Part shown: positions 6,840 to 8,218 of the stretch, piece by piece
How the letters are laid out: the number at the start of each line of letters is the position of its first letter
How positions within the stretch are numbered: position 1 is the first letter of the stretch
Assembly (NCBI RefSeq): GCF_044324785.1
Contig: NZ_CP172127.1
Length of the DNA stretch: 64,000 nucleotides
Direction: 5' to 3' (one strand)
Source of the DNA: Escherichia coli
Lineage (GTDB): Bacteria > Pseudomonadota > Gammaproteobacteria > Enterobacterales > Enterobacteriaceae
Translations under genes and position numbers: made by a program
The notes under the pieces: model-generated
Told to the model about the DNA's origin: nothing
The model's input: only the letters and a program-made list of their open reading frames with translations
Databases searched by the model: none

Positions 6840-6945
6840 GCGCTCTCCCCTCTTGTAGATTGGCAACAGGATAGCAAAACCCCTGCCCGGCCACGACCTT
6901 CTGCACTTTCATCGCGCACGGATGCATGTTTTATGTGCAACTGTT

Positions 6946-6961
6946 TTGACCGTTTAGTCCA
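6946..6961. promoter_or_regulatory. RutR-box-like site TTGACCGTTTAGTCCA
   Basis: Partial match to the RutR consensus TTGACCANNTGGTCAA in the rutR-rutA divergent region. Confidence 0.4.
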
Positions 6962-7025
6962 CTTTTTTCCAGATATTTTAGACAACTTAACATTAACACA
7001 TTAATAACATTCACTTTTTAAAAAC

Positions 7026-7041
7026 TGGCATCCGCTTTGCA
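7026..7041 (+). promoter_or_regulatory. Sigma-54 promoter for the rut operon (TGGCAT-N5-TTGCA)
   Basis: Near-perfect -24 GG / -12 GC element about 30 nt upstream of the rutA start; the rut operon is known to be NtrC/sigma-54 dependent. Confidence 0.65.
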
Positions 7042-7069
7042 AACAAACCATTACGCGGCTGAAAAGGAT

Positions 7070-8218
7070 ATGCAGGATGCAGCGCCCCGTCTGACTTTCA
7101 CTTTACGAGACGAAGAGAGGTTGATGATGAAAATTGGCGTATTCGTACCTATTGGCAACAACGGCTGGCTCATTTCGACCCACGCGCCGCAGTACATGCC
7201 GACCTTTGAACTGAATAAAGCCATTGTGCAAAAAGCGGAGCACTACCATTTCGACTTCGCCCTGTCGATGATCAAACTGCGTGGCTTTGGCGGCAAAACT
7301 GAGTTCTGGGATCACAACCTTGAGTCGTTCACCTTGATGGCGGGGCTGGCAGCCGTCACCTCACGCATTCAGATTTACGCGACAGCTGCCACCTTAACGT
7401 TACCTCCGGCAATCGTCGCCCGTATGGCCGCAACCATTGACTCCATCTCTGGCGGGCGTTTTGGCGTCAACCTCGTGACTGGCTGGCAAAAGCCCGAGTA
7501 TGAGCAGATGGGTATCTGGCCTGGCGATGACTATTTCTCCCGTCGTTACGACTATCTCACCGAATATGTTCAGGTGCTGCGCGACCTGTGGGGCACGGGC
7601 AAAAGCGATTTTAAAGGCGATTTTTTCACCATGAATGATTGTCGCGTCAGTCCGCAACCGAGCGTACCCATGAAAGTGATCTGCGCCGGGCAAAGCGACG
7701 CTGGCATGGCGTTCTCCGCTCAGTATGCCGATTTCAACTTCTGTTTCGGCAAAGGCGTAAATACACCCACGGCTTTCGCCCCGACCGCTGTGCGGATGAA
7801 ACAGGCCGCAGAGCAAACCGGACGCGACGTTGGCTCTTATGTGTTGTTTATGGTGATTGCCGATGAAACCGACGATGCCGCTCGCGCCAAATGGGAACAC
7901 TACAAAGCGGGCGCGGATGAAGAGGCGTTAAGCTGGCTAACCGAACAAAGTCAGAAAGATACCCGCTCCGGTACTGACACCAACGTCCGTCAGATGGCCG
8001 ATCCCACTTCGGCGGTAAACATCAATATGGGGACGTTAGTCGGTTCTTACGCCAGTGTCGCGCGCATGTTAGATGAAGTCGCAAGCGTGCCTGGTGCAGA
8101 AGGCGTGCTGTTGACCTTCGATGATTTTCTGTCGGGAATCGAAACCTTCGGCGAGCGCATTCAACCACTGATGCAATGCCGCGCCCATCTACCTGCACTG
8201 ACTCAGGAGGTGGCATGA
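7070..8218 (+). CDS. rutA: Pyrimidine monooxygenase RutA (FMN-dependent, luciferase-like), 382 aa
   Basis: ORF 7037..8218; the 7037 start lies inside the sigma-54 promoter so I trimmed to ATG 7070 (MQDAAPRL...); ATG 7127 (MMKIGVF) is a possible alternative. Confidence 0.88.

Follow-up and report, generated by a model that had tools for sequence, protein, structure and literature searches.

The divergent rutR–rutA control region of Escherichia coli: a conserved promoter, operator and RutA start codon, and a conserved leader block of possible regulatory function

We analysed a 64,000-nucleotide stretch of Escherichia coli DNA (contig NZ_CP172127.1; hereafter the window), and in particular the spacer that separates rutR from rutA. 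A first-pass annotation of this DNA had placed a sigma-54 promoter and a RutR-like box in the spacer and had left the start codon of RutA open between two ATGs. Of the 5,426 complete E. coli genomes, 5,421 were matched by a 701-bp query over the rutR–rutA region, and the genes annotated at the match were rutR and rutA. The window runs in reverse orientation relative to K-12; gene order and spacing are the same, and only strain-level single-nucleotide polymorphisms in the AT-rich spacer and the leader distinguish the two. The closest strain is KE55 (99.7% identity), which has been annotated with the Prokaryotic Genome Annotation Pipeline (PGAP). The genes and the spacer are as follows.

6201-6839, minus strand: rutR coding sequence, 212-amino-acid TetR-family repressor, divergent from rutA (PGAP annotation of KE55)
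6840-7126: rutR–rutA spacer, 287 bp, read here as the divergent control region
7127-8218, plus strand: rutA coding sequence as supported here, 363 amino acids, beginning MKIGVF (PGAP start in KE55, O157 and other strains)

RutR carries the Pfam domains TetR_N and TetR_C_3 (YcdC-like), and its open reading frame (ORF) reaches at most to TTG 6866, upstream of the annotated ATG 6839. The long rutA ORF extends from TTG 7037 to 8218, with an upstream in-frame stop at 7019, and its product scored 725.6 bits against the TIGR03612 RutA equivalog (cut-off 498.3), which makes it a member of this pyrimidine monooxygenase family. For cross-species comparison we used 79 orthologous rutA loci from other Enterobacterales species, giving 80 sequences with the window included. 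The analysis indicated that the spacer is very probably the divergent control region of rutR and of the rutABCDEFG operon, with RutA beginning at ATG 7127, and the sigma-54, RutR, NtrC-like and IHF-like sites were found to be deeply conserved. The elements of the spacer, with positions relative to the predicted rutA transcription start, are given here.

6902-6918, unstranded: NtrC-like site 1, TGCACTTTCATCGCGCA; centre at about -142; 2 mismatches to TGCACYNNNNNRGTGCA
6923-6939, unstranded: NtrC-like site 2, TGCATGTTTTATGTGCA; centre at about -121; 3 mismatches; 21 bp (two helical turns) from site 1
6946-6961, unstranded: RutR operator (RutR box), TTGACCGTTTAGTCCA; single box, 16-bp semi-palindrome; centre at about -98
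6975-6980, minus strand: candidate rutR -10 hexamer, TAAAAT, read directly from the sequence
6994-7006, minus strand: IHF-like site, TAACACATTAATA; centre at about -52; its reverse complement has 1 mismatch to WATCAANNNNTTR
7025-7041, plus strand: sigma-54 promoter, CTGGCATCCGCTTTGCA; GG at 7027-7028 is the -24 and GC at 7039-7040 the -12 element
7052, plus strand: predicted rutA transcription start; the motif centre (7033) is 19 bp upstream

The sigma-54 element TGGCATCCGCTTTGCA (7026-7041) showed zero mismatches to TGGCAY-N5-TTGCW, its GG and GC doublets being exactly 10 bp apart, and was the only exact match in the 64 kb. By itself the motif was only suggestive, because 23 of 100 shuffled sequences also gave at least one match (0.29 expected by chance). 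Letter for letter, the 17-mer CTGGCATCCGCTTTGCA is OS10, the K-12 sigma-54 site that was mapped upstream of rutA by chromatin immunoprecipitation sequencing (ChIP-seq; Bonocora 2015), and binding of sigma-54 has accordingly been shown in the literature for an identical sequence. Published genomic SELEX (gSELEX) also gave, in vitro, an RpoN holoenzyme peak of 71-73% in the rutA/rutR spacer. The element was present with at most one mismatch in 79/79 orthologous loci, and comparison with a divergent E. coli lineage revealed no difference in the 16-bp promoter against 7-9% in its flanks. Bonocora 2015 places the rutA start 19 bp past the motif centre, which is 18 nt before the ATG annotated in K-12 (7070); transcription from this promoter would therefore begin at about 7052. 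A scan of 6700-7300 for sigma-70-like promoters found none.

With three mismatches to the RutR consensus TTGACCAnnTGGTCAA (11/14 match; A at position 4 and T at position 13 kept), the RutR box is no better than chance as a motif alone, since 2.6 such matches are expected in the window. Comparison with the literature was more decisive: TTGACCGTTTAGTCCA is the exact reverse complement of TGGACTAAACGGTCAA, listed in Table 1 of Shimada 2008 as the rutA intergenic RutR site on the basis of ChIP-chip (chromatin immunoprecipitation read out on arrays) and gel shift, also with an 11/14 match; Nguyen Le Minh 2015 is among the further sources for the K-12 box. On this identical sequence, published work has shown RutR binding (KD 8.6 nM by gel shift at the rutA region), release by uracil (I0.5 ~9 nM) and a role of the operator in rutR autoregulation, which is abolished by four substitutions in the box. 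A box was present in 79/79 orthologous loci, at about 80-90 bp upstream of the sigma-54 element, and the gene that encodes its repressor adjoins it (6201-6839, minus strand). Since both elements are identical to mapped K-12 sites and are conserved at fixed spacing in all 79 loci, we regard the sigma-54 promoter and the RutR operator as real, as the first-pass annotation had proposed at 7026-7041 and 6946-6961.

For rutR itself, the candidate -10 hexamer at 6975-6980 would imply a start near 6968, a little upstream of the RutR box, and this position fits the published placement of the box a short distance downstream of the rutR start; the hexamer was poorly conserved in the multi-species alignment and received no call in the promoter scan. 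Closer to rutR, CAGGATAGCAAAA (6861-6879, 25-40 nt upstream of the rutR start codon) is conserved across genera, with the consensus CAGCATAGCAAA. It overlaps a two-mismatch sigma-54-like match, TGGCAACAGGATAGCA, in this strain, of which the GG is not conserved elsewhere, and its minus strand reads TGcTATCCT, like an extended -10. Several Erwiniaceae/Yersiniaceae loci (L033, L038, L064 and L078 among others) have an additional RutR-like box, 19 bp downstream of the first and about 170-195 nt upstream of rutA, whereas Enterobacteriaceae, including the window, have one. Another RutR-related sequence stands at 55374-55389 of the window, inside fabA: TGGACCGTGTGGTCAA, read on the opposite strand, is the intragenic RutR site TTGACCACACGGTCCA published for fabA (+117.5), so that the window holds a second known RutR target. 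As a separate observation on rutR, published E. coli CsrA crosslinking and immunoprecipitation sequencing (CLIP-seq) gives a CsrA peak inside its coding sequence (K-12 1074528-1074704).

The in-frame candidates for the start of RutA are TTG 7037, ATG 7070, TTG 7121, ATG 7124 and ATG 7127, and existing records disagree about them. K-12 MG1655 b1012 (1149 nt) and UniProt have 382 amino acids from 7070, while PGAP has 363 from 7127; the PDB holds both forms, the long one in 5WAN (382 amino acids) and the short one in 6SGG (363) and 6SGL (364). The features of the leader are these.

7037-7039, plus strand: TTG, ORF maximum, not a start; inside the -12 element, upstream of the predicted transcription start, no Shine-Dalgarno sequence
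7053-7090, plus strand: conserved 5'-terminal leader block, ACGCGGCTGAAAAGGATATGCAGGATGCAGCGCCCCGT, 38 nt; contains ATG 7070
7070-7072, plus strand: ATG of the K-12 MG1655 annotation (382-amino-acid RutA); judged not to be a functional start
7112-7122, plus strand: rutA Shine-Dalgarno sequence, GAAGAGAGGUU; core GAGG at 7117-7120, ending 6 nt before ATG 7127

The ATG of MKIGVF (7127) was invariant in 80/80 sequences, and a GAGG-type Shine-Dalgarno sequence began at -10 or -11 in essentially all of them. The pairing with the anti-Shine-Dalgarno sequence was calculated at -8.6 kcal/mol for 7127, as compared with -5.4 kcal/mol and a zero spacer for 7070 and -1.5 kcal/mol for 7037. Both TIGR03612 (profile positions 1-354) and the luciferase-like family PF00296 align their position 1 to ATG 7127, residue 31 in the long ORF. 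The predicted leaders varied from 30 to 159 nt among the 80 sequences, with the three phases about equally represented (30/28/22); an in-frame stop was present in 50/80 leaders, and 53/80 had no other in-frame start within 12 nt upstream of the rutA ATG. Within E. coli, a CGA to TGA change at 7106, inside the supposed N-terminal extension, was found in 15 of the 5,426 complete genomes, and rutA is annotated as intact in the 12 listed carriers as well as in strain XH993, which has a 1-nt deletion at 7123 (an assembly error is possible in this case). Comparison with the divergent E. coli lineage gave 80 synonymous and 5 nonsynonymous substitutions in the rutA coding sequence, but 1 and 4, including the stop, in 7070-7123 (Fisher p = 0.0002). 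On these comparative grounds, the choice that the first-pass annotation had left between ATG 7070 and ATG 7127 is settled in favour of 7127.

ATG 7070 lies within a 38-nt block that is conserved in its own right. In the leader alignment, this block was found in Escherichia, Enterobacter, Leclercia, Kosakonia, Klebsiella/Raoultella, Pantoea, Erwinia and Serratia, that is, across Enterobacteriaceae, Erwiniaceae and Serratia. Its mean pairwise identity was 65%, compared with 31% in both flanks, and was as high as that of the segment from the Shine-Dalgarno sequence to the ATG. In every species it started about 12 nt after the -12 element, which corresponds to about +2 of the predicted transcript. 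The block contains GGA motifs at 7066-7068 and 7075-7077 and a core, GCAGGATGCA, at 7072-7081; the core reads CAGGATG in 37, CAGGAAG in 15 and CAGGACG in 4 leaders, so that 56/60 fit CAGGA(U/A/C)G, and 57/60 have a second GGA within 16 nt upstream of the core. Some lineages with short predicted leaders (30-44 nt), namely several Enterobacter, Buttiauxella and Yersinia, have lost the block. The loci without it are L019, L022, L024, L025, L039, L040, L046, L053, L074, L076 and L077, and the Enterobacter group among them has a different small hairpin (CGTCG...CGACG) in its place.

We considered the possibility that the leader forms a stable structured RNA or a riboswitch, and rejected it. An Rfam search of 6800-7300 returned no match beyond a meaningless one (E = 2.4) to a Bacteroides small RNA, RNAalifold on 40 leaders kept only two pairs (a 2-bp hairpin), and single-sequence folds of the leader were weaker than those of shuffled controls (z +0.2 to +1.6). 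At the level of sequence, the block does contain a small hairpin, GC-AGGAU-GC, with invariant closing pairs, one GGA in its loop and a second GGA nearby. A hand-drawn stem around this GC-closed hairpin (3+3 bp with one mismatch) had 83% of its cells paired, as compared with 7-48% in slid controls, although this structure was derived from the same sequences; it showed one A-U to G-C covariation in seven sequences, which probably represents a single event.

These features recall the published binding sites of CsrA, for which the repeat of CsrB RNA is CAGGA(U/A/C)G and the determinant is a GGA in the loop of a weak hairpin; CsrA also binds two sites at the 5' end of flhDC mRNA. Our reading that the block controls expression post-transcriptionally, the most plausible form being a CsrA-binding hairpin at the 5' terminus that would tie Rut to carbon and stationary-phase status, is a tentative one and may well prove wrong. 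Such control would work through changes in the stability of the mRNA or in the access of ribosomes to it. No rutA entry appears in the supplements of the E. coli CsrA CLIP-seq study, which is uninformative because the rut operon was not induced in the medium used, and a literature search for links of rutA to CsrA, Hfq or small RNAs found none.

An alternative explanation for the conservation of 7053-7090 is that it encodes a short leader peptide (MQDAAPR...), the translation of which would be coupled to rutA initiation. ATG, GTG or TTG stands directly before CAG-GAN-GCA in 40/60 leaders, some third-position changes look synonymous (CCC, CCA, CCG; CGT, CGC), and the end of the ORF overlaps the rutA start, as TGATG or ATGA, in several leaders of the Enterobacter type. 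Yet 20/60 leaders have no start codon at that place, two of them having TAG as the triplet, and the ends of the ORF are scattered from -39 to +83 relative to the rutA ATG, some ORFs being fused in frame. The spacing to a Shine-Dalgarno sequence is also unsuitable, and the codon that follows GCA is variable in its first and second positions. The missing start codons and the inconsistent ends led us to reject this explanation, which we consider improbable.

ATG 7070 might also be a genuine or co-used start, giving a 382-amino-acid RutA in which 7070-7123 encodes a 19-residue N-terminal extension. It is the start annotated in the K-12 record, AAGGA stands just upstream of it, and the extended protein has been crystallised (5WAN). 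Neither the window nor most E. coli have a stop in this frame, 4,379 of 5,405 genomes being identical to the window over 7070-7139, so that a minor extended isoform of RutA is conceivable. An ATG furthermore recurs at this position in most Enterobacteriaceae leaders. However, it recurs in these relatives without being a start because it lies inside the conserved leader block, which is maintained even in species that have TAG, CCG or AAG as the triplet before the core. Its Shine-Dalgarno sequence is weak and without spacing, the leader phase is not conserved, and neither the in-frame stops nor the excess of nonsynonymous changes described above would be expected of a coding extension; the 363-amino-acid crystal forms, like the family profiles, begin at 7127. 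We therefore think it very unlikely that 7070 initiates RutA, and its annotation as the start is most likely an artefact. Finally, TTG 7037, which would open the longest ORF (a 393-amino-acid product) on an mRNA from an unrecognised promoter further upstream, has next to no chance of being the start and is effectively refuted already: as the first-pass annotation had argued, its position within the -12 element, upstream of the predicted transcription start, excludes it, and besides it has no Shine-Dalgarno sequence, no sigma-70-like promoter was found in 6700-7300 and other species do not preserve the extension in frame.

Upstream of the RutR box, the spacer holds two half-palindromic sequences that resemble the NtrC consensus TGCACCAnnnTGGTGCA. 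In the 79 species, the TGCAC and G..CA halves of site 1 were at least 90% conserved, fixed at -124 or -134 from the sigma-54 element, as was the GTGCA half of site 2 (at least 90%). The spacing of 21-22 bp was kept in nearly all orthologous loci where both sites were scored, and the 6-bp gap between site 2 and the RutR box was kept across families. Published papers describe the rut operon as sigma-54/NtrC-dependent, which is NtrC dependence reported at the level of the operon, without mapping the NtrC sites; conservation and geometry support the two positions identified here as candidate NtrC sites. In 71/80 sequences the best IHF-like match was placed exactly 32 nt upstream of TGGCA; 58/80 had at most one mismatch and 8 species the exact consensus, and the AAC and TTGAT columns were conserved, which makes 6994-7006 a candidate IHF site. 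By inference only, the conserved 6-bp gap suggests interference by RutR with the assembly of NtrC or with looping. The NtrC-like pair, the IHF-like site and the leader block with ATG 7070 had all been missed by the first-pass annotation, whose reading was incomplete rather than wrong.

Taken together, these elements can be arranged in the following mechanism. Transcription of rutA would start at about 7052 from the sigma-54 promoter (7025-7041), and this promoter would stay inactive unless phosphorylated NtrC, from two enhancer sites with a spacing of 21 bp (6902-6939), contacts the closed complex by DNA looping, probably with the assistance of an IHF-induced bend at 6994-7006. In the absence of uracil, a RutR dimer would sit on the single operator (6946-6961), which is 6 bp away from the enhancer and a little downstream of the rutR start, and would hold down both rutR and rutA until released by uracil. 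The resulting mRNA would have a 5' leader of about 75 nt, and RutA would start at ATG 7127 behind the GAGG Shine-Dalgarno sequence, ATG 7070 and TTG 7037 being non-functional as starts.

Besides the arguments for ATG 7070 given above, several points weigh against this mechanism. Matches to the NtrC and IHF consensus sequences were no more frequent than chance in the window, and rutA was not visibly flagged as a top NtrC peak in a gSELEX study of NtrC. EcoCyc lists the rutA promoter as predicted only, and the transcription start at 7052 is likewise a prediction. A 2024 study found that rutA was not derepressed upon loss of RutR in exponential phase; in the proposed mechanism, repression by RutR would therefore matter only once NtrC is active. 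As to the start codon, 7127 appears to be the conserved one, but ATG 7124, one codon upstream, is inseparable from it by sequence within E. coli; it is an ATG only in Escherichia and one Leclercia.

Elsewhere in the window, the first-pass annotation had listed ten genes, in addition to rutA, whose longest ORFs need trimming. The PGAP annotation of the 99.7%-identical strain bore this out for putA, rutD, rutG, torS, helD, ompA, fabA and pqiB, the check covering these eight of the ten. The ORF maximum of rutB (ATG 8176) also lies upstream of its annotated start, a routine case of trimming that was absent from that list, and the rutA stop shares a single base, 8218, with the rutB start (8216-8220). 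KE55 has an IS1397 (IS3-like) insertion between cbpM and torD that is absent in the window (~18360-18500; L087 18491-19839), and its downstream genes are shifted by about 1.56 kb, torS starting at 24606 in the window and at 26167 in KE55. K-12 has a weak antisense sigma-54 site downstream of rutG, reported from ChIP-seq as OA02 (CCGGCATGAACAATGCG), which was absent at 12600-12650 of the window with up to 2 mismatches allowed; the intergenic sequence downstream of rutG differs from K-12 at this position.

Every element flagged by the first-pass annotation has already been described for K-12, and in this respect the control region adds nothing new. The value of the analysis is modest and lies in a K-12 rutA start that is probably wrong, in the conserved NtrC and IHF positions and in the undescribed leader block. 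In the 382-amino-acid RutA of K-12 and UniProt, the 19 residues of the N-terminal extension are very probably never translated, which affects the design of constructs (5WAN being the long form) and the use of K-12 as a gold standard for start-codon prediction. Conservation over some 80 species provides precise, testable positions for the NtrC and IHF sites, which are unmapped in the literature that we found. The conservation of the leader block may be new, no description of it having been found in Rfam or the searchable literature, and among the elements described here the block alone might open a new line of enquiry. Should CsrA or another factor bind to it, pyrimidine catabolism would gain a layer of post-transcriptional control, and the block might bear on why removal of RutR alone fails to turn the operon on.

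The closest known system is the rutAp/rutR region of K-12 (OS10 of Bonocora 2015), in which the sigma-54 element and the RutR box are identical and gene order and spacing are the same. It differs from the window by its strain-level polymorphisms, and its rutA record begins at the equivalent of 7070 where PGAP has 7127. Among nitrogen-regulon promoters, those of the glnHp2 type are NtrC-activated, IHF-assisted and sigma-54-dependent. The rut spacer resembles them in its GG/GC promoter, in an enhancer-like pair two helical turns apart about 120-140 bp upstream and in an IHF-like site in between, a likeness by sequence in which the rut NtrC and IHF sites are predicted from motif and conservation. 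Unlike them, it has a TetR-family operator at 6 bp from the enhancer and also accommodates the divergent promoter of the repressor itself. The operator belongs to the same 16-bp semi-palindrome family as the RutR operator at carAB (carP1), with positions 4 and 13 kept and a similar affinity. At carAB, in contrast, the box is about 185 bp upstream and RutR acts positively, whereas the rut box stands between the enhancer and the sigma-54 promoter and acts negatively. The leader block, for its part, resembles CsrA-bound leaders such as those of flhDC (5'-end protection) and glgC (hairpin plus Shine-Dalgarno sequence) in having its core in the loop of a short GC-closed hairpin and a second GGA 6-10 nt upstream, both within about 25 nt of the predicted 5' end of rutA mRNA. 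It differs from them in a loop of 5 nt instead of the preferred 6 and in an E. coli rutA Shine-Dalgarno sequence without GGA, so that the likeness to CsrA-bound leaders is one of resemblance only.

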